A stretch of DNA of 63,032 bases, the filler included, from Folioceros fuciformis (lineage: Eukaryota): NCBI GenBank assembly GCA_049999805.1. It is 6 parts of 6 records of this genome, joined end to end, with 100 filler letters (N's around TTAATTAATTAA, not from the genome) between each part and the next. Parts side by side here need not be neighbours in the genome. Positions count along the whole stretch, not along the records: positions 1 to 14,645 come from JBNGIO010004546.1; 5 more parts are not named here. The stretch is one strand, 5' to 3'. Positions 1-61,735 of this stretch are shown here, piece by piece. Below the pieces are notes generated by a model, which was not told the origin of the DNA, made no database searches, and saw nothing but the letters and a program-made list of their open reading frames with translations. A program made the position numbers and the translations under genes. The first letter of the stretch is position 1. Every line of letters starts with the position of its first letter.

Positions 1-2
1 GC

Positions 3-806
3 ATCAACGCCCATGGTGGGACTGATGAAAACGGAAGGCAGTACGTTCGCTTAGGTGTGAAAGACAAGGCCGGGAAGCTTTATGTTGAAGATGATATTTT
101 GAAGCCCATCGCTGAATGCACGCTTTTGGCAAACAAACCTAAGGTAATTCTCATAAATGCATGCCGAGGCACTGGCACCCTTGTCGGAAGCACTGGCAAT
201 CTTGTCACAAGCAAGAAATCGCAGGTGTCAAGCACCGCCAACCCTGCAACCAGCAGCAAAGCCAAGGTGTCAGCCGTTGAGGGAAGCCAAGTTGTGAGCA
301 ACAGAGTTCGACAAATGTCTTCTGCAGAAGACCGCCTAATCGTTTTCTCCACCAGTCCTGGAGATGGATCTTTGAGATATGTCGAGGAAGGCACAAACTT
401 CATCATAGCTTTGATGGAAGCCATCGTGGAGGGCTCTGAAACAGAAGATGTCTTGTCTATTCTGACAAGCGTGATTGGCAAGGTGATGGACAAGGACGTC
501 CAACACAAAACCAAAGACGGGGACTATGAGAAGAAATGTGAGAGTCCTGAGCTCCGCAGCACATTGACCAAAAAGCTATACTGGTCTCGACCACCCAAGA
601 CTCCTGTCATGCCTGGCTCGAGTGAGTACCATGCGGCCAGGGCTTGTAATGCCTTCAATCAAGTGTCAGGTATTCTCTTCAGCTGCATGTTGTTGGTCTA
701 TTACATACTGCTTCTGATAAATCTTGTCACTTCTCCCTTGCCCGGGGGACTTTCCTGTTTGGTAGGAGAGACCTCTCACAGCGTCCTGATGGAGATGAAC
801 AGATGA
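3..806 (+). CDS. Caspase-like cysteine protease (peptidase C14, animal caspase-type p20/p10 motifs); 5'-partial. Probable intron 670-765
   Basis: The frame is open from the window edge: INAHG (His codon 12-14), LANKPKVILINACRG (Cys codon 162-164), p10-like AEDRLIVFSTSPGDGSLRYVEEGTNFIIALMEAI, and SPELRSTLTKKLYW (ends 584). G|GTATTC at 670 and TTGGTAG| at 765 would remove the hydrophobic in-frame stretch. Confidence 0.8.
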   Translation: MNAHGGTDENGRQYVRLGVKDKAGKLYVEDDILKPIAECTLLANKPKVILINACRGTGTLVGSTGNLVTSKKSQVSSTANPATSSKAKVSAVEGSQVVSNRVRQMSSAEDRLIVFSTSPGDGSLRYVEEGTNFIIALMEAIVEGSETEDVLSILTSVIGKVMDKDVQHKTKDGDYEKKCESPELRSTLTKKLYWSRPPKTPVMPGSSEYHAARACNAFNQVSGILFSCMLLVYYILLLINLVTSPLPGGLSCLVGETSHSVLMEMNR

Positions 807-1504
807 TGCCCCGTGGAGGCTACGCGTAGGGAGGGAAGACCGTGTCCGCTTGTACACGCACAGTTACAGCTCTTGGTTTTCACAGACAAGTGAGTGATCC
901 AGATTTGCGGCCTTTGTGGCTTTCACATCACTTGCACACTGTTAGGATGTATCTTTTATCTTCCCGACCAGCCGAAGCTTGGTCCCTGAGTGAAATCGCG
1001 TGTGGAGCTTCTGCCTTCAAGTCACAGTGACACCAGGCAGAAGGAGGTGCAGTCCATCACTTGTGTTAACTGGATTACCTTTGCTAGCGCATCAGCTGTA
1101 GCACATGCACAGGCATAGCTTTTAATGATCCAATCGACGAGCACACGTGCGCCATGTGTGCCTCACTTCCTGTAGCCGGCCATAAGAGAAAGATCACGGA
1201 GATGAGAAACAATTAGCCGCTACAGAAGCATGGCAGAAGGACATGCTGAAGCTTCGCCCCTCGTCACCATCTGTTCCCTGCTCGGTTTGCCAAATCGTTC
1301 TTCGGATGATGGATAATCATATCACATTCCAGTTTCTACAGCGTTACGATGACAAGCACAGCCTGAGCACACTTATGTCGTCTTTGCCTTTAAATGTAGC
1401 TTACATCTTGCATGTCTGTACTTCCAGTCCCAACTAGGGAAGGAGAGCTTTCAGCCCTTGCTCGCCGGCACGTCTGGAGTCACAGGGTTTAGGGTTCACG
1501 TCTC

Positions 1505-1716
1505 CACGCCTCCACGTCTGGAATCACAGANNNNNNNNNNNNNNNNNNNNNNNNNNNNNNNNNNNNNNNNNNNNNNNNNNNNNNNNNNNNNNNNNNNNNN
1601 NNNNNNNNNNNNNNNNNNNNNNNNNNNNNNCTTCCTTCGGCTGGAATCCCAGAGCTTCCTTCGGCTGGAATCCCAGACCTTCCTTCGGTTGGAATCCCAG
1701 ACCTTCCTTCGGTTGG
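1505..1716. repeat. 24-bp minisatellite spanning an assembly gap
   Basis: cttccttcggctggaatcccagaN units at 1631-1716 (FLRLESQT periodicity), with a similar unit before the gap. Confidence 0.85.
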
Positions 1717-2430
1717 ATGTTTGGGAGGAGAGAGGATATCTCGATTTGTACAGATGTCTGGAGGAGGGAGGGTATCTCCTTTTGTACTGCGCCTTTTCTT
1801 CCACTCGAGTTTCTAACAAAGGTCTACCTATCAAAAGGCCTCAACTACCATCGTGGAAACCGGAAAACCGGAAATCTCTTGGCACAAGTTTTCATAGGGG
1901 AAGACTTATTATGTTTCCCAACACCTGGACTCATCCTTCCATTTATAATATATAGGTTCTTTTTGTTTCAATTAACTAAATTTTATCCTTAAATCAATAT
2001 ATATATATATTTCCAGAAAAAAAAATATATGATTTACATTATATATAGGCACAGGCTTAACAAGCTGCACTTTTAAAATTACTCTATTTATAATTCTTAA
2101 CTTTGAGCTGACAATATGTAACATATCTAAAACATGTTAACTGGTCAAAATTATATTCAATTAGTACAACCAAGCATGTCCATATTTCATTTGACATGAA
2201 CCTGTGCTAATTTCACCCCCTTGTGCATTATTACAACTATCATCCTCATTATATGCAGCACCCTTTGAATCATATGCATGTTTACAATAGAAATGATAGT
2301 AGATTATATTTTTGGATTGTATACACCAAAACTAATTGGATAAGTGCAAGAGATCATATTCATGAATGTGGATAACATGCACTCCTAGATAGACCCTATG
2401 TTAGTGGCCATGGTGAGAAGCCTAATGTAC

Positions 2431-2630
2431 ATTACCCATTTCCGTATGAACTTAAATAAGTGCTAGGAATGGATATGTTGCTCGATCGGACGCGCAGTCT
2501 GCATCTGCCCAGCCTCAAAGTTGAGCTTGCCGCCGGTGGATCTCTTCTGGATGATTCCAGTGTGAGTGGTGCCCTTCAAGTACCGGTAGATCTCTTTACG
2601 CACATCGGGTGTGCCCTGCCAGGGTTGAAC
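2431..2630 (-). mobile_element. Ty1/Copia RT remnant, duplicate of ~4091-4295
   Basis: Near-identical to 4091-4295. The minus strand reads VRKEIYRYLKGT, an RT C-terminal motif. Confidence 0.65.
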
Positions 2631-3630
2631 TCCTCGATTGCAAGTCACTTCAACTCCTCTTCCTCGATCCTCAGGTCACGGTCACTGGTAAGTGTCGGTG
2701 ACTCTCTCAACCCTTCTTGAGTCCCTGCTGTGAGTGTTGCCTGCGACAGGCTGCTGTTCCGAAGCTGAGTACTATGTGCCATCGATGGAGGTCGCAGGGC
2801 GACGGGCACCTTCAGGCTGGGGCGCTAGTGGGCTGGGTGTGGGAGGTAGTGACTGCTCTCAGGACTGGAGCACTCCGTTGAGCTGTCTCTCCCCGCGAGC
2901 TTGTCCCTCCCCCAATTGCGTCTCGACCCGAGCCAGCGACGACTCCACCTTTCCCAGCTGCTGGTCCTGTGCGGCTTCCCTATGTTCGCCAGCTGATCTG
3001 CTTGCCTTTAACGTGGTTGCAGGTCGCGATCCGGTGTGGGCGCCTCGTTTCCTCGGTCGACCCTCTTCCAGACCACTGGCTCGCTGGCGTAGTCTGCTGC
3101 ACCCGCGTCCTGCTCTGGCACACCTCCTCCTGTGGCCAGGTGAGCTTCCTCCGTTTCTCCCTGCAGTTGCAACCTCCTGGACAGTTCTTGGCACCGTATC
3201 CTCTGACCAGCGCTGTCCTCAGCGGGCTCCATCCCCAGCACTTGGATGTGCGTGATGTGCCCGTCCTGCTGCCTTGTCCTCGAGCGCAGTCGGTCCTCGA
3301 CCCCTCCTCGCAAGCGATCTTTATCACTCTCGCTGGAGATGGCACGTAAGACACCTCGGGGTGGCAGGTAACTGGCTCATGGCTCACGATTTCCCTGGGT
3401 AGCCTGGTCCACAAAGCCGTGGAGAAAATGTTGCAAGAGTTCATTAATCCAAAGGGTGGGTTTATAAAAGCCTTGATTTTGTGGCTGATCCTGCAGCGAT
3501 CTCCTGTGGCTTGCCTGATGCTTTCTCCCCTTCACGCTGTGAACGTGTTTGATGCGCCAACGCGTTGGGCATGGGGATTCTAGCCGATCTACACATTCCG
3601 ATCTCTTGATCCAGCAACGGCAGATTACAG

Positions 3631-4089
3631 TTGGCTCTGATACCACAGATACAGCTATACAGGTTCTAGGCTGCAAGCCGCATCGCGTGCCCGCTTTCAG
3701 GCGTAGGACGTGTGTTTCAGTTCATGTGCGGATACCCCATAGGAGCGGGTGCCTTCCTTCTTGAGACGGTCCAGAAAGGTGCCCGCGGCTGCAACTACTC
3801 TGTGTCTTGGCAAGCTGGGTGAGCTTAACCTACGGTCTAGGACTGGTTAGATTTGGGGTTAGGATTGGCGTTTCATAATTATCCCAGTTCATCTATGTAT
3901 TATCCCTAATTTTCCTTATTTATATATTAGCTGGATACCGTGTATGGATAAGGTATTCCTGTGTACACATACATGCATTGTACCTCGTGTGGTTCCCCTG
4001 GTCATGCCTGCTGTGGCTAAGGGCAGCTTCGTGTCCGTGTTCCTTCTTTGCTGATGGACGTGAGGGGCCGGCTCGTCGTCTCCTGTCGC
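3631..4089 (-). mobile_element. Degenerate LTR with tRNA-iMet primer-binding site
   Basis: ttggctctgatacca at 3631-3645 is TGGTATCAGAGCCAA on the minus strand. A TG-like start lies at 4089, next to the Copia remnant. Confidence 0.5.
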
Positions 4090-4090
4090 A

Positions 4091-4420
4091 ATTACCCATT
4101 TCGATATGAACTTAAATGTGTGCTAGGAATGGATATGCTGCTCGATCGGATGCCCAGTCCACATCAGCCCAGCCTTCAAAGTTGAGCTTGCCGTCGGTGG
4201 ATCTCTTGTAAATGATTCCAGAGTGAGTAGTGCCCTTTCTAAGTACCAGTAGATCCTCCTTACGCACATCCAGTGTGCCCTGTCAGGGTTGAACATAAAT
4301 TGTGCAACAGTGGACGTGGCATAGGAGATGTCAAAGCGTGTCCAACCATGGACGTAGATGAGGCTAGCAACGGCACTCAGGTATGGCACCTTGGACATAT
4401 CCCCTTTTTCGACTTCAGGT
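4091..4420 (-). mobile_element. Ty1/Copia reverse transcriptase remnant
   Basis: MSKVPYLSAVASLIYVHGWTRFDISYATSTVAQFMFNPDRAHWMCVRRIYWYL matches the Copia PY..AVGSL.Y...TRPDI..A motif. Confidence 0.85.
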
Positions 4421-5569
4421 GTCAGATTTGATGGAGGCAGGTAACAGCGGCATCACCTTTTTTGATGCACACACAGCTTGATTCCTGTTGGGCAAGAGGG
4501 TCCTCTCACAACGTCTCATTGTGTATGAACAGATCGTGGGTCATGGAGGCTACGGGTGGGGAGGGAAGAACGTGCTGTGTTTGTACACAACTGGAGCTCT
4601 TGCTGTGAAGAGGCAACTCCAGGTTTGGGGTATTGTGGTTTTTACAATGGTATTGTACACCAGCGTGAGGATGTATTCTTCATCGTCCCTTCCGGAGCAG
4701 CCAAAAGCTGTGACGGGATGTGCCTCACCATAATCGCGTTTGAAGCTCCTGCCTTCACGTCACAGTGACACCAGACAGAACGGAGCGGTAGCTCACGGAT
4801 TGTGATAACTGGATTACAGTTGCTAGCATATGAAGGGGCCTTGTCCCCTGTTTTGGGTTTGGTGTTCCCGGCGTCCCGTTTCCTGCTGGTGTGGAGCACG
4901 ACGTTTTCCCTCTTCCTTGGTCAACAAAGCCGGGGTTCTTGTCCCAATCAGCAGTAGGCAAGAATGTTGAGAATCGCGCAGGAAACGTGTGGGCCAGGCA
5001 AGCTCCAAATCGACCAACCACCTGTGGAATAGGTACGGTGTTGCATCTTACGGGGAGTTGCTTGTGGTGACATATCTGACATCTCTCGGTCGATTCAGAT
5101 TCAAGAAATAGTACATCGACCTGGTGTGTGCTGTGTTAAGAGCTGCTTCCGTTTGTGTACGTACCGTGGGAATCGGCAGGAACTCCAAAAGCAGATTTCA
5201 AGTAAATTGTCGTCGATGAATTTCTAGTTGCCTAATGCACAGGCACACGTTGATTTCAAGTAAGTTGTGTGTGAGGAAGACGGGGTCAAGCTGTGAAATG
5301 ATCGGCAATGCGATGGTATGTGCTGTTCTTGGGATTGGAGTGAATTGGAGGCCACATTGGTGGCCACACCAGTGAACGAGCAAGCTGCAAATGCAAATGC
5401 ACTCATTCTTACCGCGTGTCTAAAGCAAGAATGGTGAGAGGTTCATTGCGAGATGTGCTTTTGGCCGCCACACAAGCTTCTGGCCGCAATTTATTGCAAA
5501 AAATAGATTTTAGTTTTAATAACTAAAACTAATTCTTGTGAATATAATGTGGCATGATAGAGTACATTC

Positions 5570-5800
5570 CTGGTTGCTCAGGAAGGGGGTGTCCGATCCA
5601 CATCCCGCCTGCATGATAAGAGCGTGAGTGCACGTACGTAACGCAAGGCAATGCTTGCTCCATAAAAAGTCCTTTAGAAGAGTGCAGAAGAGAGATTTGG
5701 AAATGTAGCAATGTGTGAGCACAAGAATACCCACAGTCTCAACAGCCTGATTGAGCTGGCCCTCATGACAAAGCTTCCCACAGGTTTCAGCCGTCACGTC
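5570..5800 (-). pseudogene. Degenerate N-terminal fragment of a PLS-PPR gene
   Basis: TAETCGKLCHEGQLNQAVETVGILV...SKSLFCTLLK aligns to TAATVSMLCHQGKLSEAVGALESLV...SQSLFYTVLK of the PPR gene in piece 6. Confidence 0.7.
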
Positions 5801-6015
5801 ACTTTGGCATCCTGCAGACTCACAGATAGTCGCAGTAGTAGGCCAGCTTCAGTTGCTTTACTATTCCACAAATGTGTGGGCTCTCGAGGAGGATGTGACC
5901 TCAAAACTGTTGGCGGCTAATAGATCCCTAAAAGATCAAGCTTCTCCAAGAATAAGCTAACACTGCAATAGTACAGTTGTGGACTGGTGGCACCCACTTT
6001 CTCGTCTGGTTCTAC

Positions 6016-6321
6016 CTGGTCAGGATCAACTGCGAGCCAGCTGCTTCACACAATTTGTACAACTGATTAGCTACCATGTACCGCACACGCTGTGGTCTAT
6101 CCTAAGTACAGGAAGACACATTACAGCACCTCGTCAGCCAACATCCACTCAATGGTAACCAAGTTTTAAATTTGATTGGCCAAAATGGGACAACCTTGCG
6201 CACAAACCTGTACGAAGCCTTAGTGCAATAGGGAGGATATGGACAACACAATCATGAGGCTCAAGTAGTTTGCCCAGAGCTGCACACCCTTCCACAGCCA
6301 ATAGTCTTACAGAATTTTGTT
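6016..6321 (-). pseudogene. PP2AA: Two-exon fragment of PP2A scaffold subunit A (HEAT repeats)
   Basis: Exon 6321-6208 gives QNSVRLLAVEGCAALGKLLEPHDCVVHILPI. Exon 6101-6016 gives DRPQRVRYMVANQLYKLCEA. The plant PP2A-A sequence is QDSVRLLAVEGCAALGKLLEPQDCVAHILP...DKSWRVRYMVANQLYELCEA. GT-AG boundaries are retained, there is a frameshift near 6220, and no other exons are visible. Confidence 0.85.
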
Positions 6322-8659
6322 CTGCACATAAAAAAGGTGTGCAGTCAAAATGACTTAAATGACAGTGAATACCGCTCGCAAGCCTCACTTGACACTCCAG
6401 CAAAACGCAGCGATGCGTTTTGCTGTTTTGGTGTCACACTCCATTGAAAATGGTTGCTGCTATGCTATGCAAGTGCAAAGTGGAAAAGAATGGTATGTGC
6501 TTAGAGGGGGAACAACCCAATCATCACTTCGATCTCCTCTAAAGCAAAAAGCTGATCACCCTCCCTTTGATCATTGCACAAAGCTTGCTTGGGCTCCACT
6601 TCTTGCTTGATTTGTGAATATATGCATTAGGTAGGCCTATAGCTCCAGGGCATGACTTGGTGTGACTTATGAATCCACCGTGCGTGCAACCAAACCCACA
6701 TGAGAACAACCCTTGCCACTGTGGGAGGTCGGCGTATTGGTAGCTAATGAGGTGCCAGGTGCGGCTTCACAGCCCAAGCTTCGTGAACTGGGGACTTCTA
6801 ACCCAGCCGAAACCAATTGAAGCCTTCTCAGTCTGAGCGTTTGCTAGATGTAAGTATGGATTCCCAAGGGCGCCAGTGAACTGATGCAAAGTGTGGAAAC
6901 TTATTGGATGCCGCTGTCATTCATGTCTGTCTCACACAATTTCTAGTTTCTAGTCTAGTCCATCACTATCGCTACACCCAATTTTTTGCACGGTAATATT
7001 GCTCCTTGGAGAAGCTAGGCCAATTTCTCTTGTCAAATTGAGGCTTTTCAGTTGCCAAAGGCTTCTTTGGTTGCTCCTTCTTCCTCGATAAAAGGAGGAG
7101 GTACCATTTACAGTGGCTACTAAGTTTAGTTAGAGGATTTTATGGTACGCTTACTATAGCTCTAACCCCTATTATAAATATTTTAAACATTTACAACAGG
7201 ATTGCTATCTAATATGAAGTGGTATAAATTTTACAACAGGGGATTGTTGACATGGCAAGTTTAGCATAGATTTTATAAGAGGGGTTTGATGACATAGTGT
7301 GCTTGTTGTAAATGATGTTGTTCATTTTGCATAATCTCTTTTTGATTTAGGAAACTAGGGGAGTTATTTATTGTTAAATTACAAGATTTTCAATATATAA
7401 TGATGTGGCATGGAGGACATTGCACGCAATAAGTGTAAAAGGCTCTTAAATTAAGCATGGTATGGATGTGGGTTTAGTTGTGAGACTTGATTTTTTGGAA
7501 TAATGCTATATAAAGAAATGATATGTAGAGATGTGGAAAGTCCATTGCGAATGATGTTGTAAATGCGTTTATTTAGATTATTTTTAGAATGTAATTCTAA
7601 AATTTATTTACTATTTATTATTATATCTTAAATATTTTAATAATAATTAAAAAAATACAAAAATCATATTATAGGAATATTCATATATATGTAACTATGA
7701 TTCACTAAGATGACAGATTGTTTCCAAATAGTTTTTTAAAATGGTCTCTTAAAAGGTTTTTGACATTACTTGATTACCAAGATTTATTATAGTTACTTAC
7801 ACGGNNNNNNNNNNNNNNNNNNNNNNNNNNNNNNNNNNNNNNNNNNNNNNNNNNNNNNNNNNNNNNNNNNNNNNNNNNNNNNNNNNNNNNNNNNNNNNNN
7901 NNNNATTTATTGATTTGCATTTGCTCATAATTGGTGAAACGAAGTCCTTAGCATACCAAAGTGTTGAGGAGTGAGGACTTTCTTGGAATCCTTCCACTTT
8001 TCTTATTGGCCCACTGTGGAGGAGTGCATTTTTGGTTTTAAAAGAATTGTGAAATGCTGCTCCTAGTCATAGGCTTGCTCTACTCTATAGCTAGTCATTT
8101 AAGGCCTTTGTCAAGCCAAGATAGTCTCCCAAGGCAAAGATTGCTGAGTGAATTAGACACTTTCATTTGCATATTCATGTACTCATGTTACAAGATATGT
8201 TTGCAAGTGCTATTGATTTTCCAAGAGCAAAGTTTCTTAATTTAAAATACGACAACAAATTTGTGATTTAGATTCATGTTATATGTTTATATCAGTCATC
8301 CTGGCGCCATAAGCAAAACGCAAGTTATACTCTCCTGCAAATCCGTTATGGTCTTGGAACATTGATATGGTACACAATAGGTCTTCTAGGAACCTTCTAG
8401 TCCAGAGGACTTTGTCCAAGTCCAAGATTCCGAGCGCAGAATGACAGCAAGTAACATGCAAGTAACATGCTTGCAACAAGCTATTGACTTGTATGTAACC
8501 TCCCATGAAGCATCGTGCCCATGGCCCCACATTTGCAGTCTCGTGTAGCCAGGCAACAAAAAAAGAAGAAAGGTCTTTCTAGCGTGCGTCTTCAAGAACA
8601 CCAAACTGGGCATAAAAGTCCACGACGCAGGTGGTCACCACTATGTCCTAACGTCATTC

Positions 8660-8915
8660 CATTCAAAGGTGCTCTTTCCACGACCCGGGAGTACAGCTGC
8701 CTGCCCATCTGTAAGGCACCAGTGCTTCCACACAAGAGGGCAACCACGAGCAACTTGACGCCCCGCCACCTCCATGCGTTCGGACAAGGCAAGTGCCCCT
8801 TCCCAAACTCGTTCAACTGTCAGCCCATGTCGCGCATCCTTTAAGGCAAAGCATGGCATTAATCCTGGTGGGCATGTACACACTTGAAATGTGTACATGC
8901 CCACCAGGCAGGTCC
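8660..8915 (-). pseudogene. Degenerate PLS-PPR motif fragments
   Basis: TCLVGMYT (S-motif-like) and CGSTGALQMGRQLYSRVV (L-motif-like) match the motifs of the piece-6 PPR gene. Confidence 0.65.
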
Positions 8916-9499
8916 TAGATGTAATTGAGGCAGCAGCGTCCTCGTCTTTCTGATGCACACACAGCTCACAACCACAAACGGACTGTTTTCTCTTTCGCAT
9001 TCAGTACTGTATGCAATTGGATTGTTCTTCCCACGGTAGGCATGATACGTGTATTGAAGTTGGACTGTAATGGCCGACTTGGCGCATTCTCATTCAACGT
9101 GCTTGGTCAGGACCGACCTCGTTTTCTTCGGATGCGTGCAAACTAAGGTCTGTATATGACGGTGCATGGGCTAGGACTCAGGAGCGTACCTGCGCTGAGC
9201 TCAGGTGCTGGGTCCTACCGTCCACAAACCTACCTACCTCCCTACAGTACCTTCTATGTGAAGGAAGGCATCTTTCGTGCAAGTAGCAGAGTCGCAAGAG
9301 TCACGTCGTGTTGTGACAAGTAGTGGGGGGGAAGGAGGGTTGGAACTTGGAAGCAGCAGTTCACAAAAGTTTAGCCTTTCCTGTCCGCCATGCTGGCCCA
9401 CCCAGTCCACAACACCTAGACATGGTTGCATAAAATATGCAAGTATGGAGCACGAATATCTGGTCTCGCGGAGATTTAAGAGTCTTGCATGATGTACCA

Positions 9500-10110
9500 A
9501 GTCTCCTCGATTGTGTGTGCTTTGATGTTGACGTCCCCTAGCCTATCCTTGTCTGGCATCCCAATCCTCCTCGAGTGTGTGTGCCGTGAGGTTGGTGTCC
9601 CCTAGGCTGCCTATCCTTCTCTGGTATGCCAATCCTCCTCGAGTGTGTGCTTGTGAGGGTGCTATCCCGTAGCCTATCCTCGTCTGGTGTCCCAATCCTC
9701 CTCGAGAGTGTTTGCTGTGAAGTTGACTTCCCTACCTAGCCTATCCTCGTCTGGTGTCCCAATCCTCCTCGAGAGTGTGTGCTGTGAAGTTGACGTCCCC
9801 TACCTAGCCTATCCTTGTCTGGTGTCCCAATCCTCCTCGAGTGTGTGCTGTGAGGTTTGTGTCCCCTAGGCTGTCTATTCTTGTGTGGTGTGCTAATCCT
9901 CCTCGAGTGCATGCTTGTGAGGTTGCTGTCCCGTAGCATATCCTTGTGGGGTGTCCCACTCCTCCTCGAGTGTGTGTGCTGTGAGGTTGATGTTGCCTAG
10001 CTTGCCCTTGTTTGGCCTGCCAGTCCTCCTCGACTGTGTGCTTGTGAGGTTGCTGTCCCGTCCGGTAGCCTGCCCGAGTCTGGTCTCCCAATCTTCGAGT
10101 GTGTGATGTG
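9500..10110. repeat. ~63-68-bp degenerate minisatellite, about 10 copies
   Basis: Recurrent cctatcctcgtctggtgtcccaatcctcctcgagtgtgtgctgtgaggttg, with an XhoI-like site in almost every unit. Confidence 0.9.
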
Positions 10111-10196
10111 AGCTTGCTGAGCCTGCTACAAAACGGATGATACATACAATCCATTCGTCATATTTGCTTGCATTGGGAAGCGCAGCTTAGCACAGC

Positions 10197-13100
10197 ATGG
10201 CAGCGGACGGGGACTGTGACTGGCGCGAGTTGCCGGAGAAGTTGCAACAGCTGCTGGTAGATCTGGAAGGCAATGCCGTGTTCTACCTCCCCGACTTGCA
10301 GGGAGAGGAGTACGGCGACTTCTTCAGAAGTGGAGCTTCAAGCAAGAGGGATGGCAGGCACTGGCGAGTGCGGAAGCGGGTATTGACAGCTATTGGCCAG
10401 TGCTGCAGTCTCGTCAACCTGGAAATCTCTGATTGCTGGGAGATCGGCATCGCTCGGGAGGATGAATGCGCGGTTCTGTCGGAGGGCCTGGCATCTAACC
10501 CTTCCCTGGAAGAACTTGATCTCGATGGGTGCGAAGGTTTTGGAAAGCTGGCGGGTTGCAAGACCTGGGCGAGCTTATTACTTCCAGTCGCAGCCTGCGA
10601 CGGCTGAAGGCACCTTGGATCGAGCTTGATGCCACGGGACTTGGTGCACTGGTCGAAGGCTTCTTCAACAAGGATTGTGTCCTGGAGTATTTGAACCTAA
10701 ATGGGAACAATGTGGGAGATGCTGAAGGTGCACGGCACGTGGCTCGCATGCTGGCTACCGCTCCCCGTCTCAATACCCTGGATCTGCGTATGACCGGTCT
10801 GAATGAGGCAGGAGCCCAGTGCATTGCGAACGCTCTTCCGCTCAGTGCCACGCTCAGGGAGCTTTACTTGGATACGCGATTTTATGGCTGGTATACAGAT
10901 TGGGGTTCCGTACAGGGCAGCCTGGGGCCCTTGAGCACTGTGTTGAAACTTGCTTTCACCCGTGCTGAGGCTGATGGTGATACCGCCATATCTGGGGTCA
11001 CCAAGCTGATGTTGAAGCTCGGGAACAGCTCTGAGCCAGGCCTGGCCGACGCGCTGGCCGGAATGTTGCGCACCAACGATCGTATAACGGAGCTTGAGAT
11101 GGACGCTTCTGCTGTCGACTTCGGCCTGGACGCCTGGCGCCACAACTCTACCCTCTCCAAACTTGAGTTGTTTGGCCGTACCTACGGTGACAAGTCTGCG
11201 AGTGAATTTTCTATGTCGTTTGTGGAATGCAAATCATTACGTGTCTTGACTTTGAGGAAGATATACTGGCCCTGTTTCATGAAAACGTTGTTGCGGTCTT
11301 TGGAGAAAAATACATCCTGGAATGAGCTCAACATTGTGAAATGTGGTAAACTCGATGATGCGGTGTCCAGAGAGTTGATGCAGTTTGTCCGAGCCAGCAC
11401 CACTTTATGGAAGATCAACATGTACGGCACAGTGTGGGATTGGAAAGAGAATGTGGCCATCATCCGCGCAACGGTGGCACGAAATGCTAGTCAGAGCCAC
11501 CAGTGGGAGAGCATTGCGGAGGAGGAGAAGGAGGAGAATGACTGGAGCGCGATGCCGGCTAAGCTGCGACAGCTGGTGATACATCTGGAACGGAATGCCT
11601 TGTCCAAACTCCCCTGGTTGGGCGCTGAGGGATACGGTGATTACTTCATTAATCGAGAGATGTGTTGGATGGATGGTCACTACTTCGGAGAGCTTGGTCG
11701 TCGTAGGAGGCACTGGCGAGTACGCGAGCGGGTATTGACAGCTATTGCTCAGTGTCGAGGTCTCGGCGGCGACTTCACGATCTCTCCGGACTGGGAAATC
11801 GGCATCGTTCAGGAGGATGAATGCGCGGTCCTGCTTGGGGCCTTGGCCTCTAACCCTTCCTCGGAAGCTCTTGATCTGGCTGGGTTCAAATGCTTTGGAA
11901 AGCTGCTGGGTTGCGAGGCCTTGGGCCAGCTTATTGCTTCCAGTCGCAGCTTGCGACAGCTGGATGTAGGCTCGATTGGGTTTGATGCTGCGGGACTTGG
12001 TGCCCTTGTCGACGGCTTTAACAAGGACATCGTCCTGGAAAATTTGGACCTAAGTTCGAACAGAGTGGGAGATGCTGAAGGGGCTCGGCACCTGGCTCGC
12101 ATGCTGGCCACCGCTCCCCGTCTCAATACCCTGGATCTGCGTCGGATCGGCATGGATGAGGCGGGTGCCCAGTGTACATCCAACGCTCTTCCGCTCTGTG
12201 CCACGCTCAGGGAGCTTTTCTTGGATAATGGAAATCCGGATGACGGGCCTGGAAGCTCGGGCACCCTGGGGCCCCTGTGCTCTGTGTTGAAACTTGCTTT
12301 CACACGTGCTAATGCTGATGCCGCCATATCTGGGGTCACCAAGCTGATGTTGGATATCCGGAACTTCCCTCCGTATGAGGCACCGGGCTTCTGGAGGCTC
12401 ACCATCCGCCCTCGGCCAAGCCTGGTCGACGCGCTAGTCGGAATCTTGCGCACCAACGATCGTATCACGGAGCTTGGGATCAGCTATTATGTACCCTTGC
12501 CTGGCTTCTTCAGGTCGTTTGAGGACGGGCTTTACTGTCCGACAAGTTCTCTGGAGTGTAAATCATTGCGCATCATGACTTTGAAGGGGCTTCATTGGCC
12601 CCGTTTCTTGGAACTGTTGTTGCAGTCTTTGGAGAGCAACACATCTTTGAATGAGCTCAACATTCTGGACTGTCGTCATCTCGACGATAAGCTCTTCAGA
12701 AAGTTGATGCAGTCCCTCCAAGTCAACACCACCTTGCGGAAGATCGACATACACGGCACAAACTGGGCTGAGGAGGGAAAGCAGGCCATCATCAACGCGA
12801 CGTTGGCACGCAATGTTATTCACAGGGCCTACTAGCCTTTGCTTTCGGAGGGACAAGAGGCTGTGAAGCCCAGGGACGGGCGCCTTTTCCTGTGCGGTGC
12901 ACCTTTCGCAGGCAAGACTACTCTCCGCACCACCATGATTAAAGCATGGCGCGCATCTCAAACACACACAAGTACAGGAGCCGCATCACCCGACCAGACG
13001 AGTACTGTCAACAGAACAGAAGGAATAGAAATCGAGGTGCTGCGCGACGACGATGAGATGGAAGTTACCATCTGGGATCTGGCTGGACAGGCTCACTACC

Positions 13101-14645
13101 GAGCTCTGCAAGACTACTTGTTCCCCAGCTTCAACCAGGCATGTGTTTTCTTGTTCACTTTCAACCCATTTGATACCGATAAGCCTGGTGGTCCCGTCCC
13201 CTCTGGAGAAAAAATTCAGAACAAGTTCACCAAGAGCTTCACCTTTTGGCTCAGATTCATCCACTCTAACTCTCGCAACGTGGGTTCCTTTTTGCCTCGG
13301 TTATGTGTGGTTGTCACACATGAGGATGAAATGAAGGATCTGGAGGCTGAATTACTACTCGATCTGCTGCAACCAGTCGTGGACAAGTTGGCCAAGCATT
13401 TTGCGGAGGTACATCTTATCACGACAACGCCCTTCTTGATGGATGCTCGATGCGGAGAAACTGTTCAGCCCTTGCTGGAGAAGCTATTCCAATCTTTTGA
13501 AGAGCTATTTGCGCTTCCTCTGTTTCGGGTCCCGGAGGCGTGCAACCGATTCAGTGCTGTTTTGACTCAGTGGGCATCTCAAAATCCAGCTCACCCTATT
13601 GTGACGAAGGAGTTCTGCAAAACGTTGTTTGAAGAAAAAGATGAGCAACGCCTTGAAGCAATTCTTACCTATGTGCACAATGCAGGCAGGGTCATCTGGT
13701 TCCAAGATGCAGATGCTGTGGTGGTCAATCCACACTGGATCAGTCATTGGTTTCTGGGACGTTTGATTGATCTCCTACCTGGACCGTCTTCTTTGGGAAG
13801 ATTGCCAGATTGTGGATTTGTTGCTAAAAGGTTCCTGTATAGCACCTTGGCCCAGATCCTCGAGAACCCGAAGGCGGCCGACGAGATTGGTGATGACACG
13901 CCGGCGGCCGACAGGATTGGTGTGGAAGATCTGGTGTCATTGATGATAAAACTAAACTTGTGCTATCCAGATGATACGAATCGGGGTCCTGGATTCTTCG
14001 TTCCCTTCATCTTAGATGACAGTGACGGTAAAGCTCTTCGAGGGGAACGACAGTTGCACTGGGAGGGGGGTACGCCGGGCAAGTACAACTACGTAGGGAG
14101 GCGGCTTCAATGCCGAGATGAAACTAAGACGTTACTCGGTCCAGGCTTCTTTCCAAGATTCCAAGTACTTTACATTGTGATCTGTCTTTCTAGATTTGTT
14201 GTTAGTGATTCATGCTCTCTTGGGTTTCCTGACATCATCGCCAACGGTTGTGCATTGTAGGTCAAGTTACGACAGATCTTGCTCGACGGGCTCCCCGGTA
14301 TGGAATCGTTTCAATATGGGATTGCATGGAACTTGATAAGATTTAAGTATGGTGGTATGGATGTTTTCTTGGAGAGTAGCGGGGATATTGGGGAGGAGAC
14401 CGGGGACATTGTCGATCGTGTTGACATTTTGATGAGGTCACTCAAGAGCAAGGACGAAACGATCCACTTTCTCCAGAAGCTTCTTGTTGCAGAGCTGAGA
14501 GCATTTTGTGCTTCTCCTGAAGGTAGTCCTGGAATTCAGCTTGTAGAAGGGATCATCAGGACGGAGTGTGTGGAGAAGCTCACACCTTGTATTCACCGAC
14601 ACAATCAATCAGTTCTCACACACAGGTTGATGGATTGCTTCTCCC
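10197..14645 (+). pseudogene. TORNADO1-like LRR-ROC-COR (ROCO) gene with a duplicated LRR module; frameshift ~10560, in-frame TAG 12833-12835, intron 14165-14260; 3'-truncated by the linker
   Basis: RI-type LRRs (LEYLNLNGNNVGDAEGARHVARML), ROC P-loop RLFLCGAPFAGKTTL, G2 RTEGIEI, G3 IWDLAGQ and G4 VVTHED. COR motifs VGRRLQC..LGPGFFPRFQ|V and LRAFCASPEGSPGIQLVEGIIRTECV resemble plant TRN1. Confidence 0.85.
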
Positions 14646-14745
14646 NNNNNNNNNNNNNNNNNNNNNNNNNNNNNNNNNNNNNNNNNNNNTTAATTAATTA
14701 ANNNNNNNNNNNNNNNNNNNNNNNNNNNNNNNNNNNNNNNNNNNN
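14646..14745. other. Artificial scaffold-joining linker (N44-TTAATTAATTAA-N44); also at 28804-28903, 43061-43160, 52100-52199 and 59323-59422
   Basis: An identical 100-nt structure with stop codons in all six frames occurs five times. Confidence 0.97.
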
Positions 14746-14994
14746 CCTACTCCCAACAAGGGACCCGCGACAGGGCCTGTCAGCGTTGCTAACGGCGTGG
14801 TGTTCGGAACCGAATTCGACTCCGTCGGCCGCGTCTTCGCCCTGGACGGCAAGACAGGCGAGGTGCTGTGGCATTACGACTCCATGAAGGGATCCTGCCA
14901 AGGCGGGATTGCGATTTCCCAGGGTTGCGCTTACGTCGGATCGGGCTACCTCAGCAGCCCGGGAACATCCCTGTATGCCTTCTGCGTGGAGTGA
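14746..14994 (+). CDS. Last exon of a PQQ beta-propeller (PVA-dehydrogenase-like) paralog, 5'-truncated
   Basis: GPVSVANGVVFGTEFDSVGRVFALDGKTGEVLWHYDSMKGSCQGGIAISQGCAYVGSGY...LYAFCVE* is highly similar to 25672-25940. Confidence 0.85.
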   Translation, partial: PTPNKGPATGPVSVANGVVFGTEFDSVGRVFALDGKTGEVLWHYDSMKGSCQGGIAISQGCAYVGSGYLSSPGTSLYAFCVE

Positions 14995-23496: not shown

Positions 23497-25940
23497 ATGA
23501 CGAAAATGGAGAGAGCTTGCCTTGTGCTGAAGCTGTTAGTGGTCGTACTTCCGTTGGCAGCCGCTTCGTATGGTGACCAGGTACGTCTGTGCATGGCAGG
23601 GATGACTAGTTTGTTCCTAGGCAAGAACGTTGTGAGGGGGATCCGGAGCAGATTAGTTGGCACTTAACTCGATCGGCCGAGGGTTGACTTGGGGCAGCAT
23701 GTGTTGTGTGGGGGACGCAGTGGCTCAATCATGGAGGTGGGATCAAGAACTGGAGGTTTGCGAAGAAGGAGAGAACGATCAGTGTTCACACAGCGGCGCG
23801 CCTGGCTCTCAAGTGGGAGTTTGTGGCTGGATTTTCCGTTTCAGCCACTCCTGCCATCTACAAGGGTGTGATCTACTTCCCCAGCTGGAACGGCTTGGTG
23901 TTCGCGCTGGAGCAGAAGACGGGGTCGCTGCTCTGGCGCACGAATATCACGGAGGTGACGGGTCTGCTGGGTACTGTTTACCAAGTACAGGGTACGCGGG
24001 GTGCTTTCTTGACGCGCATATCGATCGTGGGATTTCCCCTTCTGTCGTGTGATGATGTATCGTGAGTGAGCTGGGTTGTTTACGGTTTGCTGGGCTTGGA
24101 TGCTGCGCCAGGGCTCCCCTACGCACTCACGAGAGCGACGCCTGTCGTGGCTCATGACACGCTGCTGATCGGACTCGCCGGTCCAGGCTATGTCATCGCT
24201 CTGGATCGACGCACTGGCAAGCTTTTGTGGAAGACTCTCGTTGATGAGCATCCCTGGGCCCTCTTGACGCAGTCGGGCACCGTCCACAAACGGTAGCACC
24301 ATTGCTCATACACAAGAGGCCTGCAGTATGAAGTGTTTGCTGCGTACCGGTTGTTGTACTCCTCGGTTGTTGCCCATGCATGATGCAAGAACGTTGCAAC
24401 AGACTTGCAGACTGGGATGGATTCGCTGATTACACGTAGCAGGTGCTAATCGCGGTAAGCTTGCTTGTTTGCGCAGTTCATACTACTTCGGGGTGTCCTC
24501 GCTTGAGGAATTAGCCAGCATCCTTCCTGACTACATTTGTTGCACCTTCATTGGGAGTTTCCAAAAGCTGGATATCCGAACTGGGAAGGTGGAATGGAAG
24601 ATTCTCACGCTGCCAGACAATGGAGGCAAGCCAGGGCGGTATGCCGGGGCTGCTATCTGGGGCAGCAGTCCTGCCATCGATCTGGCACGGGGTCTGGTGT
24701 ACATTGGCACAGGAAACATCTACACGGCACCTCTAGCCATCCAGGAATGTGAGGCAAAGCAGCAGAACCTCACTAAACCTGAGGTGAGTACAGACTCTGC
24801 TTTTCATCGCTGCTCGTGACATGTTATTGTACGGGACCTCTGGGCGTGGCTATAAGTACTAGTACTGCAATGCCGTCACCCTGCAGCAGGAATGTACTAT
24901 AGACATATGTCGTTCTACACCAATTCTGGCGGGGTGGTGCTTTAATCTGTGTCAGGTTCCTGATCCTTGCCTTGAGCCGGGGAATCTGGAAAATGCAATC
25001 TTGGCTGTGGAGCTGGGCAGCGGGAAGATCAGGTGGGCCAAGAATCTGTTGGGCTTCGATGCTTGGAATGTAGCTTGCGTCCTGCCCGGGAATGTTGCCA
25101 ACTGCCCTAAGACCCCTGGCGGCGACTACGACTTCGGACAAGCCCCGATGCTGTTGACCCTTCGCGTTAATTCCTCCTCCAAGGTCGATGTGGCAGTGGC
25201 CGTGCAGAAGAGCGGCATCGCCTGGGCCTTGGATCGAGACACCGGTGAAATCGTCTGGGACACGGTACGTTTCCAAACATCTCAGATTCGTTGAACACGT
25301 TTCACTGGCTGGCCTGCTTCTGACGGTGACGACTTCAGGTTACGGGACCTGGTGGGTACGCTGGTGGCCCCATATGGGGATCAGCCACAGATGGCAAGAC
25401 AGTGTATGTGAACAATGCCAACATCCTCAACCTCACTTACACGCTGGCTCCTTCGACCAACACCACAACCGGCGGAGCTTGGGCGGGCGTGAATGCTGTC
25501 ACAGGTGGACTCTCCTCTCCTCTCTTCCTTCCTTCCTTCCTTCCTTCCTTCCTTCAGAATGTGCTCCATGGCATCTCCCTCCTCCGATTCAGGTTCCCCT
25601 CACTCCGTCTACCTGGTTGGAGCATTACGATTCAAGTAACAAAGCGGTGACGGTGCCCCAATTGTGTGCAGGCTCCGTTCTGTGGACAACTGCTACTCCC
25701 AACAAGGGATCCGCGTCTGGGCCTGTCAGCGTTGCTAATGGCGTGGTGTTCGGAACTGAATCCGACTCCACCGGCCGCGTCTACGCCCTGGACGGCAAGA
25801 CAGGCCATGTGCTGTGGCATTACGACTCCATGAAGGGATCCTGCCAAGGCGGGATCGCGATTTCGCAGGGTTGCGCTTTCGTGGGATCGGGCTACGGTAC
25901 CAGCCCGGGAACATCGCTGTACGCCTTCTGCGTCGAGTGA
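23497..25940 (+). CDS. Secreted PQQ-binding beta-propeller protein, polyvinyl-alcohol dehydrogenase-like; ~528 aa in 7 exons (23497-23580, 23721-23991, 24112-24292, 24477-24783, 24956-25264, 25339-25504, 25672-25940)
   Basis: All introns are GT-AG with consistent phases, and the CDS totals 1587 nt. Signal peptide MTKMERACLVLKLLVVVLPLAAASYG, then WLNHGG, repeated A(L/V)DxxTGxxxW docking motifs, vicinal CC (ICCTF), AAIWGSSPAID..RGLVYIGTGN and DYDFGQAPML. Confidence 0.9.
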
Positions 25941-28803: not shown

Positions 28804-28903
28804 NNNNNNNNNNNNNNNNNNNNNNNNNNNNNNNNNNNNNNNNNNNNTTAATTAATTAANNNNNNNNNNNNNNNNNNNNNNNNNNNNNNNNNNNNNNNNN
28901 NNN

Positions 28904-29386: not shown

Positions 29387-32300
29387 TGAAGCTTTGCACA
29401 GGATCGAGAGGGAGGAAGGAGAGGATGCGCGCATAAATCAAAAAGGAAAAAAAACTTGATATATATTTTGGGTCCTGTGTGTCCCTTTTTCATNNNNNNN
29501 NNNNNNNNNNNNNNNNNNNNNNNNNNNNNNNNNNNNNNNNNNNNNNNNNNNNNNNNNNNNNNNNNNNNNNNNNNNNNNNNNNNNNNNNNNNNNTTTCATG
29601 TCCCGAGAGTTAGTTTTTTAGGGCACGTTTCGCGTCCCTTTACATCTGGCTCTTTGAATCTTGTGATCCAAAACGTCCTTAATTTAATTAATATTTTATG
29701 TAATATTTCTATAATACTAGGCTACTTAGATAACCTATCTACTTTTACTCCTGCTTAGCCTGCATTTCTACTTGTTACTGTTAGGGTAAGGTGGCAGTCG
29801 TCGAAGCTTTGGATTACTCCTGTAGTCAAAAAAACTGATCTTCAGTTGGAGCTCACAACCATGCCTATTGTTGTAACGCTGCCTGTGATGTATTCACGGA
29901 TGAAGACAGGCTGATAATCAGAAATGATGTGCTTGACGAGAATTAGCTCCCACTACTGGTGGAGTTCTCTGCAGCAACAAAGAAACTGATTTGCTGTGTG
30001 TTGTTGCAGACCCTTGATGGCACTACACCACCGTGATGCCACTTCAGCGATTCCAAGCTCAATGGCGTTCCTCCTACCTCTGCAATATCTTGTAGTTGTG
30101 CCTTCTAAGTAGAAAAATTATTCTTATGCATCTGGATTTTCAACCATTCCCATTGCCTTGCAGAACCTTTCGTGCTTATCACGAGCTAGGGCTTTAGTAA
30201 GGATATCAGCTACGTTTGCCTCTGTTGGGACATACTGAAGATTGGCTTGCCCTTCAGTGACTACTTGCCTGATAAAATGGTGTTTAATTTCTATGTGTTT
30301 TGTCCTAGCATGCATGATTGGATTTTGAGCAAGGGCAATGGAGGATTGATTGTCACTTAGTAATAGTGTGGGTGCNNNNNNNNNNTGCTAACAACTCTCG
30401 GCCATGTATTATTTCTTGTGCAGCTGTGGTGGTAGCAATGTACTCAGCTTCAGTGGAGGATAAGGCCACTACCTGCTGCTTCTTACTATGCCAGGAAATG
30501 ATGGTGGACTGAAACTCATCTTTGCTGAGCATCAAGCAATGGACCGAGATTGACTTCCTGCTATCTGTATCAACAGCCCAATCTACATCACAAAAGCAAG
30601 TGAGCAGCAAATTCTCTGGTTGCTTGGTGTACAGTAGTCCTCGATTCAGGGTGCCTCCAAGGTATCTAAGGATCCTTTGAACTACATGCCAATCTGCACT
30701 CCCATAATTTGTAAGGAACTGAGATGTAACACCTATAGAGTGTGACAGATCAGGACGAGTCCAGTTTCCGAAGTAAATAAGTACTCCCACTGCAGGTCTG
30801 TATGGTATAGATGCCATTTGCTATCGTTCCTCCTCTGTTTTTGGTGACTGGTCATTTGTTAGCTTCTCCCCAGTTGCCATCGGTGTTGGTGCAGGTTTGG
30901 CATTTTGAAGACGGAACCTAGCAAGAACTTGGTGCACGAATTGTGATTGGTGTATGAAAATACTGTGTCTGGCTAGATTATGATGTATTCGAATACCAAG
31001 GAAGAATGTAAGCTGACCAAGGTCGGTCGTGGATAATTCTGAAGTCAAAATGGCTTTAACCTTTGACATGGCTGCAGGATTGCTAGAAATAAGGACAACA
31101 TCATCTACGTAGAGTGCTAAATACACCAGCCCATCTTTGTCATGTAGTTTGTAGACATTACAATCAGCATTGCTTTGGACAAACCCACAACTCCTAAGGT
31201 ATGTGTCTATTCTCTTGTACCACTCTCGTGGTGATTGCTTAAGCCCATAAATTGTTTTTACAAGTCTACATATCTTGTTAGGATGCTGCGGATCTACATA
31301 CCCCTCTAGTTGCCTCATGTAGATGGTTTCTTCAAGGTTTCCATTGAGGAATGCCGTTTTTACGTCCATATGTTGCAAGTGGTAGTCATGCTGGGCTGCT
31401 ATGGCAAGAAGAGCACGAATGGAAGTTGCTCGAACTACAGGTGAGAATGTTCCTGTATAGTCAAGCCCCTCCACTTGACTGTACCCTCTTGCAACTAGTC
31501 GAGCCTTGTATCGTGCAATAGCCCCGTTGGCGTTCAGCTTTGTTTTAAAGACCCACTTGCATGTTACAGTCTTCCTTCCAGGTGGCAAGTCTTCAAGCAG
31601 CCATGTTTTATTATCTATGAGAGACTGGTATTCAAAATTTATTGCCTCAATCCACTTTTGTGCATCCTTCCCATTTATGGCCTCTTGGTATGACTGAGGA
31701 TCTCCCGTGTCTAGAAGACCACTGTCATCCTGTACCAAGAAGGACTTGTATGTCAAGGGAGGTTGTGCCCACTCTAATGGTGAAGTTGTACGATGACATG
31801 TCCCAATGTCAGTCCCTTTGCGCAGGACAGCAGGTGCAGGTTGTGCAGAAGTTGCAGGAACTTCGACTTCACTTGCATCTGAATCTGGCTGCACACTGCC
31901 GATGTCCTGCAAATTTTCACCCTCACTTGCACCATAGTCGATTGAAGATTCTTGAGAGGAAACTCCTTCTACATCATCCTCACTGTCGAGGTCGGGAAAC
32001 TCACTTGGCTCTTCATCACTTTCAGGGTCTATAGAGGGTTGTGTATTTCCTGATTGAGAGGTACTAGCTGCAGGATGTGAGACTACTGTGGAACCCTCTA
32101 TGTAGCTTGTGTCATCAGTAAGCAGACCTTCGTCAACATCATCAATTAAGGTACAACGGGCAGATGGGTTTAGAAGTAATTGTTCATTGAATATGACACT
32201 ACGTGCATGAACAGTGGTATGAGATGTAGGATCATACAGTTTATAGCCCTTAACTCCCTCGGTGTAACCTATGAAGACATACTTATGTGCTTTATAATCC

Positions 32301-43060: not shown

Positions 43061-43160
43061 NNNNNNNNNNNNNNNNNNNNNNNNNNNNNNNNNNNNNNNN
43101 NNNNTTAATTAATTAANNNNNNNNNNNNNNNNNNNNNNNNNNNNNNNNNNNNNNNNNNNN

Positions 43161-45802: not shown

Positions 45803-46057
45803 GGGGGGGGGGGGTACGTATATAGACACCTGAGTGCCCCCGCACTACCAAGGGCCAAGGACACCCTCGCCCACACTTCTCCTTGGTCCTGTCACTCAAT
45901 TCTATCAAATCACCAAGGGCCAAGGACCCTTTTGGGTATAAATACCCAAGTATTATTTCCATACTAAGCCGATCCATTCGTATCTTCACAAAAAAAAAAC
46001 ACAACCTGTTCATTCTGTTCTTCAAAATGGAAGTCCCGAAAGTTTTTTTCCTCTACA
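45803..46057 (-). mobile_element. LTR end of an element inserted in a Copia integrase; same family as 51803-52099
   Basis: The minus strand starts TGTAGAGGAAAAAAACTTTCGG and aligns to TGTGAACGAAAAAAACTTTCAG at 51803. Confidence 0.75.
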
Positions 46058-51802: not shown

Positions 51803-52099
51803 TGTGAACGAAAAAAACTTTCAGAACCCCCATTTTGAGCGACGGAATGAGCAGGTTGTGATTTTTTTTTGTGAACGGACAAGCGAATTGGCTTAGTAGG
51901 TGAATAAGACCAGGGTGTTTATACCCAAAGTCCCCCTTGGGCTTCGGGGTTTGGGTTGTACTGGAGACCGGGACAAGGAGGGGAAATGAGCAAGTGCCTC
52001 CTTGGCCCTCGGGTCATTGAGAACATTAAGCACCAGGTCTGTAGGTAGGTGAGTGGGGTATGTCCTTGGCCTTTGGTGGTCCGGGACCCCTTAGGTCTC
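51803..52099 (+). mobile_element. LTR start inserted in a Copia integrase
   Basis: The TG start breaks the frame after SKAFKS. Homologous to 45803-46057. Confidence 0.75.
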
Positions 52100-52589
52100 N
52101 NNNNNNNNNNNNNNNNNNNNNNNNNNNNNNNNNNNNNNNNNNNTTAATTAATTAANNNNNNNNNNNNNNNNNNNNNNNNNNNNNNNNNNNNNNNNNNNNG
52201 ATGAACGTGGAGAACCTAGCAAACAAACTTAAAGAGCAGAATCTGATGGTAACCCACCCAAATACAACCCTATATTATTGTCGCTATGATTGAAAGGCCA
52301 AAATCTCCATGATTTGAACAATAAGACATTCACAAGATAGGCTACATGCCTGTAAGTAGGCGGGGCACACACTTGTGCGCGCCTTGGTATTGTAGTTTAC
52401 TAGAAAAAAGCTGATTTGGAAATGATGTTTGAAGCATGCGTTATATCAATGTCCGCTTTCCTTAGAAAACAGAAGTGTCTAAATTTGCGTAGCAATAGCT
52501 GTCGGCCTTCTCAAACCCTCGAGTTGTAGTAGATCACATTTTTGGAGGGTGGTGCGTTGCCATATGACTGGAGCAAAAGGCAAAAGAAG

Positions 52590-60739: not shown

Positions 60740-60839
60740 NNNNNNNNNNNNNNNNNNNNNNNNNNNNNNNNNNNNNNNNNNNNNNNNNNNNNNNNNNNNN
60801 NNNNNNNNNNNNNNNNNNNNNNNNNNNNNNNNNNNNNNN

Positions 60840-61635: not shown

Positions 61636-61735
61636 NNNNNNNNNNNNNNNNNNNNNNNNNNNNNNNNNNNNNNNNNNNNNNNNNNNNNNNNNNNNNNNNN
61701 NNNNNNNNNNNNNNNNNNNNNNNNNNNNNNNNNNN

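Follow-up and report, generated by a model that had tools for sequence, protein, structure and literature searches.

Animal caspases (subfamily C14A of MEROPS) are held to be absent from land plants, in which metacaspases are present. Metacaspases cleave after Arg/Lys and have the active-site motifs D[AS]CHSG and YSGHG. The caspase-like activities of plant cell death are credited to unrelated proteases. In bacteria, LRR-Roc-COR (AP-GTPase) conflict proteins carry variable C-terminal effectors that include caspase-like or CHAT proteases (Kaur et al. 2021, eLife, PMC8195603). Here we analyzed a 63,032-nucleotide stretch of DNA from the land plant Folioceros fuciformis (assembly GCA_049999805.1), called the window below, which opens on part of a gene for a caspase-type cysteine protease. 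The encoded domain is of the caspase (C14A-like) type, not of the metacaspase type.

Translation of the window start gave a 267-codon uninterrupted open reading frame (ORF) at 3–806 on the + strand, with its 5′ end open at the window start. The Pfam profile Peptidase_C14 (PF00656) matched it far beyond chance (E 7.9e-16; 58.9 bits, cut-off 21.4). The match spans profile positions 94–233 of 233, which would place the ~93 positions before them upstream of the window. The features of the frame are as follows.

3–602, + strand: part of a catalytic domain of the caspase type (Peptidase_C14), extending from the catalytic His as far as the conserved LTKKLYW at the C-terminus, with its 5′ end cut by the window start (PF00656, PDB sequence and profile matches, AlphaFold2, Foldseek)
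12–14, + strand: codon CAT of the catalytic His, residue 4, in INAHG (H4 nearly invariant in a 64-sequence alignment)
162–164, + strand: codon TGC of the catalytic Cys, residue 54, in INACRG (aligned to QACRG of caspase-7; C54 nearly invariant)
171–326, + strand: Ser/Thr-rich linker that separates the part resembling the large subunit from the one resembling the small subunit (disorder predicted; gappy, weakly conserved columns)
327–593, + strand: small-subunit-like part, DRLIVFSTSPG...SLR...GTNFIIAL...LTKKLYW (aligned to the caspase-7 and caspase-6 small subunits; confidence of the AlphaFold2 model, pLDDT, 91–98)
603–806, + strand: unconserved C-terminal tail, with the stop codon at 804–806 (its last part enters a dispersed repeat)

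The Cys motif, KPKVILINACRG, has its Cys 50 codons after the His of INAHG. It is followed in the frame by DRLIVFSTSPGDGSLRYVEEGTNFIIAL and then by PELRSTLTKKLYW. The Arg codon of SLR (nucleotides 369–377), which corresponds to the S1-pocket Arg, lies at 375–377 within DRLIVFSTSPGDGSLRYVEEGTNFIIAL. In INACRG, Asn stands where animal QACRG has Gln (Gln283). The linker is ~50 residues long and has no evident Asp processing site. A preliminary description of this DNA had reported an animal-type caspase catalytic domain here and proposed a profile hidden Markov model search; every motif that it named was recovered at its position in the ORF by translation and Pfam, and the search returned the Peptidase_C14 match given above. 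A second caspase copy was not found in the window: tblastn at E 1e-3 gave only 3–647, and a relaxed search for a further copy gave chance-level matches only. A supposed caspase remnant after the spacer at 14746 was ruled out, as that sequence belongs to a PQQ-propeller gene.

The type of the domain was decided by comparisons of sequence, profile and fold. A phmmer search against all PDB chains found 149 sequences at E ≤1. The 60 best were all caspases, among them caspase-7 (the best match, E 2.1e-7), caspase-3, Spodoptera caspase-1 and an ancestral effector caspase. The alignments put the Cys region of the query on QACRG and the Arg of SLR on SWR. This Arg aligned with SWR of caspase-7 and SHR of caspase-6, and its column (R125) was nearly invariant. 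A profile of the clade described below matched caspase-6/7/3/8 in the PDB over the whole domain at E 1e-35 to 1e-31.

An AlphaFold2 model of the query, built on a 64-row alignment, had a mean pLDDT of 79.1 and a predicted template modelling score (pTM) of 0.71. Only linker residues 65–81 and 89–104 fell below pLDDT 50, and the folded parts reached 91–98. Foldseek with this model ranked caspases or CED-3 at positions 1–49 throughout, all with probability 1.00. No metacaspase was among the best matches of the PDB sequence, profile or fold searches. A protein atlas returned animal caspase clusters only (0.87–0.89), to be read as leads only.

Relatives were collected with HMMER from a set of 1.84 billion representative proteins, searched in full, and 225 matches were obtained at E ≤1e-3. 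None of them was closer to the query than 34–42% identity. Motifs were counted on the 150 best matches: QACxG occurred in 101 and NACxG in 17 (10 of these outside the clade of the query), whereas the metacaspase motif D[AS]CHSG occurred in 0 of the 150 and is also absent from the query. In both sequence and structure, the query resembles caspases more than it does metacaspases, paracaspases or bacterial homologues. The earlier assignment to C14A rather than to metacaspases was thus favoured by the PDB, profile, fold and motif results alike, and the SLR Arg, placed earlier at the S1 position of Arg341 (caspase-1 numbering), does align with the S1 Arg of caspases-6 and -7.

Trees of the catalytic domain placed the query in a clade of 12 with P0004–P0009, P0013, P0015, P0017, P0020 and P0053. 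Support for the clade was 96 in FastTree (126 domain rows) and 98 in IQ-TREE (SH-aLRT; LG+C20 PMSF, 62 rows, with eight long-branched rows dropped and the 50 best-ranked others kept); both trees were unrooted and had no metacaspase or paracaspase outgroup. In one of these trees, the nodes that would define a sister group of the clade had supports of only 58 and 30. Either horizontal acquisition or ancient retention, the two origins named earlier, may account for the family. The clade is marked by CFV(N/S)AHG, KPK..(I/V)NACRG, S-x-R and a C-terminal KLYW. Among the 11 members in which the position of the catalytic His is covered, 10 retain it; the catalytic Cys is present in 11 of 12, and so is the Arg of S-x-R. 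The Arg179 equivalent (R-x-G..D), upstream of the window in the query, is kept in all eight clade relatives that cover the position.

Organism names were checked for 30 relatives. Two of the 11 database members of the clade carry one, and both are transcripts from a hornwort, Nothoceros aenigmaticus; the remaining nine entries derive from Logan, JGI or ENA. The 12 organism-named matches outside the clade were without exception from animals (insects, molluscs, sea urchins, amphioxus and turtles). By these trees and names, the query belongs to a distinct clade of caspase-type proteins that appears to be non-animal. The phylogeny and the search for orthologues that had been suggested earlier thus gave a well-supported, though unrooted, clade apart from animal caspases and two hornwort transcripts within it.

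No further member was recognised among the matches examined in other collections. A word-index protein search gave no match for P0001 at near lengths. A metagenome scan gave five loci, of which L001, L002 and L005 were examined and proved to be animal-type ((S/T)HG) or outside the clade. Scans of 185,579 prokaryote genomes and of viral contigs, each with a narrow pattern, found no relative, which counts as weak evidence.

Whether the caspase sequence is the plant's own depends in part on how the window is built. It contains 22 N runs. Five of them are spacers of 44 N + TTAATTAATTAA + 44 N, at 14646–14745, 28804–28903, 43061–43160, 52100–52199 and 59323–59422. TTAATTAATTAA is a palindrome that yields a stop codon whichever of the six frames is read. 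Separate scaffolds have thus been strung together artificially in the window, and neighbourhood and order across the spacers are meaningless. The first scaffold (1–14645) consists of three contigs (1–1530, 1631–7804 and 7905–14645) joined by 100-N gaps, and the caspase contig is 1–1530 only. Three further features of this scaffold bear on the question.

752–1088, + strand: dispersed repeat directly downstream of the caspase frame and overlapping its end (self-comparison)
4482–4827, + strand: the other copy of this repeat, located on the contig that follows within the scaffold (359 aligned columns at 70% identity; E 1e-31)
10191–14645, + strand: TORNADO1-like LRR-Roc-COR (ROCO) gene that shares the scaffold of the caspase contig, given as context and not established as the same gene as the caspase

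Sub-blocks of the two repeat copies are 76–90% identical. The preliminary description had reported a recurrence of 772–1090 at 4500–4830; this holds approximately, with the copies on different contigs. It had also argued against contamination from a single contig that carried PPR and PP2A fragments besides the caspase. That argument fails because the PPR genes (59.4–62.9 kb) are on other scaffolds than the caspase contig. A PP2A fragment did not turn up in the window, in which no search aimed at PP2A was made. The conclusion that the contig is unlikely to be a contaminant was upheld by other evidence, as follows.

Contigs of sequencing runs were compared with window positions 1–3000. X2 and X3 are DNA runs, and the RNA nature of X1 is a guess. 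In three runs from two studies (2017 and 2025) under one organism label, 70–78% of the sampled words of the caspase contig were present. Exact-match contigs over the caspase contig had word depths of 9.05–9.39 (X2) and 9.88–13.4 (X3), and the neighbouring contig (2071–3000) had depths of 9.77 and 11.4, respectively. The read-depth comparison proposed earlier therefore put the caspase contig at the level of its neighbour in two DNA runs; contig word depths are a crude measure and a poor gauge of copy number or expression, so the agreement is a hint. The GC content at third codon positions was 0.535 for the caspase frame and 0.52–0.63 for the ROCO, PPR and PQQ frames of the window.

Of 86 X2 contigs matching the region, 51 were 90–95% alike, non-coding flank included, indicating that the caspase gene has several recent paralogues. 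Where DNA contigs extended beyond position 6, their loose ends translated by hand to ..AQDDCFLFCV before NAHG. This is the strand that precedes the His in the family, a hint that the domain continues upstream in the genome. Exact-match X1 contigs covered 120–311, 508–669 and 640–1030, which suggests transcription through the caspase stop codon into the repeat if X1, as guessed, is an RNA run. On the neighbouring contig, an X1 contig skipped 110 nucleotides with GT..AG ends at 2686/2797, which X2 and X3 read through. We read these positions (2686–2797) as a probable intron, belonging to a transcribed + strand gene that is unannotated; the frame at 2734–3255 has no Pfam match.

The ROCO gene matched Pfam Roc and COR-A, with LRR_6 below the cut-off, and is truncated in COR-B by the scaffold end. 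It had 67 longer matches. The named ones are all from land plants, with ~30% identity: angiosperm TORNADO1, and TORNADO1-like proteins from Marchantia, Riccia, Calypogeia and Sphagnum. Two in-frame stops (12833–12835 and 14258–14260) lie inside conserved sequence that aligns in one piece to Marchantia and other relatives, and the gene is probably a pseudogene of a family expanded in bryophytes. Its LRR part is internally duplicated.

The same family was met in the caspase clade itself. Residues 1–158 of P0004 (450 aa) and 1–120 of P0053 (427 aa) aligned to positions ~930–1070, the COR-B region, of TORNADO1-like proteins of ~1400 residues (31–36% identity; E down to 1.6e-17 and 8.4e-17, respectively). 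P0004 also aligned to the window ROCO frame at 14261–14644 (E 2e-10). A full caspase domain follows directly after the COR-B segment in both proteins, which group with P0020 and the hornwort transcripts in the caspase tree. This COR-B segment is the strongest argument for a plant origin of the clade. At least part of the clade would, from these alignments, consist of TORNADO1-type ROCO proteins in which the tail was exchanged for a caspase domain.

Two related ideas did not hold up. The canonical C-terminal domain of TORNADO1 (~330 residues) is not a cryptic caspase (hhalign probability 0.4%). Membership of the window ROCO gene in the caspase-bearing subfamily was unsupported, its nearest COR-B rows being Riccia and Marchantia paralogues.

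Overall, the caspase contig is very probably land-plant nuclear DNA. Contamination is unlikely because of the ROCO gene on the same scaffold, the shared repeat, the recurrence and depth in the runs, the paralogues, the hornwort-containing clade and the COR-B fusions. The ROCO gene and the TORNADO1-type COR-B segments of clade relatives sustain the earlier claim that the domain sits in land-plant DNA.

The caspase fold, an intact His-Cys dyad and one of the two S1 arginines are present in the query. On this basis we propose how the gene may work. ORF 3–806 would make up two-thirds, at the 3′ end, of a land-plant nuclear gene that encodes a cysteine protease of the caspase (C14A-like) type. The gene would be one copy of a family recently expanded in this organism. 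Judged from its pocket residues, the protein would be an active endopeptidase with a preference for an acidic P1 residue, since the Arg341 equivalent is present here and the Arg179 equivalent in all eight relatives that cover it. Asn in place of Gln283 could alter the S1 pocket or widen and relax it. Activation may occur by induced proximity or dimerisation, as in caspases. In at least part of the clade, the switch would be a TORNADO1-type LRR-Roc-COR GTPase module in the same polypeptide, and nucleotide-dependent assembly of this module would be the trigger in the fused forms. Such a protein would combine sensor, switch and executioner in one chain, analogous to the bacterial Roc-COR-protease proteins and, in animals, to the apoptosome or inflammasome together with its caspase. 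The same design has been proposed for the bacterial AP-GTPase conflict proteins (PMC8195603).

We consider it fairly probable that the gene is a genuine plant member of a new caspase-type clade. Several points weigh against this reading, and there are three rivals. The most serious is that the locus is real plant DNA but a dead or dying copy, a recent duplicate that is transcribed and makes no working protease; such duplicates could have spread with the neighbouring repeats. Contig 1–1400, flank included, is matched by many 90–95% contigs. Within 3–602, the paralogue differences were 11 non-synonymous against 5 synonymous, a near-neutral ratio that fits decaying copies; the count covers the 16 best-supported differences, with 39 further rows left out. 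The frame also overruns the usual end of the family, its tail entering the repeat: relatives P0005 and P0013 terminate 10–12 residues past the LYW/LFW motif, and paralogous contigs have a stop at codon 206 or 209, the usual end point of the relatives. It is the 11:5 count, these stops and the overrun that make the decaying duplicate a serious rival. The two in-frame stops of the ROCO gene on the same scaffold and the copia fragments around the caspase contig point the same way. However, the frame runs for 267 codons without a stop or frameshift, the catalytic His and Cys are preserved together with the S1 Arg and every conserved motif of the small subunit, the folded parts of the AlphaFold2 model are predicted at pLDDT 91–98, and the probable RNA run X1 has exact-match contigs. 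Fast change at the protein level is also typical of expanded immune-type families. We judge a dead or dying copy rather unlikely on balance. A second rival, a pseudo-protease or scaffold with the caspase fold whose signalling relies on binding instead of cutting, is improbable. P0017 has Tyr for His (GYG), and P0053 lacks the Cys (VISGHG in place of NACRG); with a catalytic residue lost in these two members, the family may include pseudo-proteases, and Asn in place of Gln283 would also fit. The query, however, keeps the His, the Cys and the S1 Arg, most of the clade does as well (His in 10 of 11, Cys in 11 of 12), and NACxG also occurs in 10 matches outside the clade.

The remaining rival, that the contig came from an animal or another organism living on the plant and was scaffolded in by mistake, is very improbable. 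In its favour, the nearest sequences outside the clade are all animal (12 of 12 organism-named proteins are animal caspases), the contig is only 1.5 kb long and linked to the ROCO gene only through scaffolding gaps of N, and small animals are frequent in bryophyte transcriptomes. With only animal neighbours outside the clade, sequence by itself leaves contamination or a recent transfer some probability. Against it stand the depth shared with the neighbouring contig in two DNA runs, the presence of the contig in runs of two studies eight years apart and the repeat common to the caspase contig and the next one. Among the 1.84 billion representatives, identity to any animal protein was only 34–42%, and annotated animal proteomes contributed no clade member. 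The COR-B segment present in two members of the clade is of the TORNADO1 family, whose named relatives are all from land plants. For the genuine plant gene, two further weaknesses remain: the RNA status of X1 is only a guess, and the upstream third of the domain, with the Arg179 equivalent and any N-terminal module, lies outside the window.

A wider reading goes beyond this gene. Some non-seed land plants (hornworts and the lineage of the window) may have cell-death or immune receptors of a class that joins a TORNADO1-type LRR-Roc-COR GTPase switch directly to a true caspase-type protease. We put this forward tentatively, as a doubtful possibility. P0004 and P0053 pair together in the COR-B tree, apart from the window ROCO gene, although branches are long. 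Owing to this position and to its two stops, the window ROCO gene does not show that the caspases of this genome are ROCO-fused. A word-index search with the clade alignment gave no protein of 789–2250 residues with the clade caspase domain, neither PF00656 nor the caspase queries matched any of the 67 TORNADO1-like matches, and no Roc domain was seen in one chain with the caspase in any relative.

Other elements of the window were noted as side observations. Ty1/copia is represented by one near-complete element (gag, integrase, RVT_2 and RNase H) and several degraded copies, with positions at 30353–34336 (− strand), 45964–47888 (− strand), 50505–51896 (+ strand), 2431–2630 and 4091–4398. Copia fragments flank the second copy of the caspase-adjacent repeat. 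Two closely similar ends of PQQ-type β-propeller genes lie ~10 kb apart on one scaffold (14746–14990 and 25158–25940, + strand). They share the motif ..GVVFGTE.DS.GRV.ALDGKTG.VLWHYDS.. and are paralogues of an enzyme family that is unusual for plants. Pieces of PLS-type PPR genes at 59423–62850 (− strand) contain near-identical repeat units (..VVTWTALIAGYAQQGLGQEALVVYAQMEEAG..) interrupted by gaps. They point to a very large, recently expanded PPR family. Very large PPR families are found in hornworts, lycophytes and ferns.

The gene is multi-copy, belongs to a clade with hornwort transcripts and has two relatives with COR-B fusions, all of which goes beyond what the preliminary description contained. 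Literature searches turned up neither a caspase-type gene from hornworts or other land plants nor a plant ROCO–caspase fusion, although such a domain may be listed in supplementary tables of plant genome papers. A caspase-type family in plant nuclear DNA that is multi-copy, probably expressed and joined to ROCO sequence in two relatives challenges the textbook picture. If confirmed, it would for the first time open caspase-type proteolysis in plants to genetic study. Plants would join animals and bacteria as a third kingdom with the "NTPase switch plus caspase" design, and the question of when caspases originated and how they moved would be reopened. If the fused class also exists, caspase-based execution would extend beyond animals, and part of the "caspase-like activity" of plants in such lineages could stem from real caspase homologues.

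The closest described systems are the animal caspases-3/-6/-7/-8 and CED-3. The query has their fold and their order of His and Cys, and it shares KPK..I.ACRG, the S1 Arg of S-x-R, the GT.F(I/V).AL helix and the C-terminal LTKKLY(F/W). It differs in AHG and NACRG, where animal caspases have SHG and QACRG, in its ~50-residue Ser/Thr-rich linker, in its plant host and in its separate, well-supported clade. Two members of the query family have a COR-B segment upstream of the caspase domain, unlike animal caspases, and no CARD or DED was found in any relative scanned. Plant metacaspases (C14B) share PF00656, the clan CD fold and the host kingdom with the query; they cleave after Arg/Lys, whereas the pocket of the query is basic and caspase-like.

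TORNADO1 (TRN1) is the closest plant system on the ROCO side. P0004 and P0053 share its COR-B region, and a TORNADO1-like gene lies on the scaffold of the caspase contig. In the caspase-bearing relatives, its C-terminal domain of ~330 residues is replaced. The bacterial Roc-COR conflict proteins (PMC8195603) share with P0004 and P0053 the order of COR followed by a caspase-fold protease. Here, in contrast to those proteins, the COR is of the TORNADO1 type and the protease is much closer to animal caspases. The apoptosome and inflammasome, with caspase-9 and caspase-1, may work in a similar way, an NTP-driven switch with repeats gathering the caspase domains. In the proposed plant form, switch and protease would be in a single chain and the switch would be a Roc-type GTPase.

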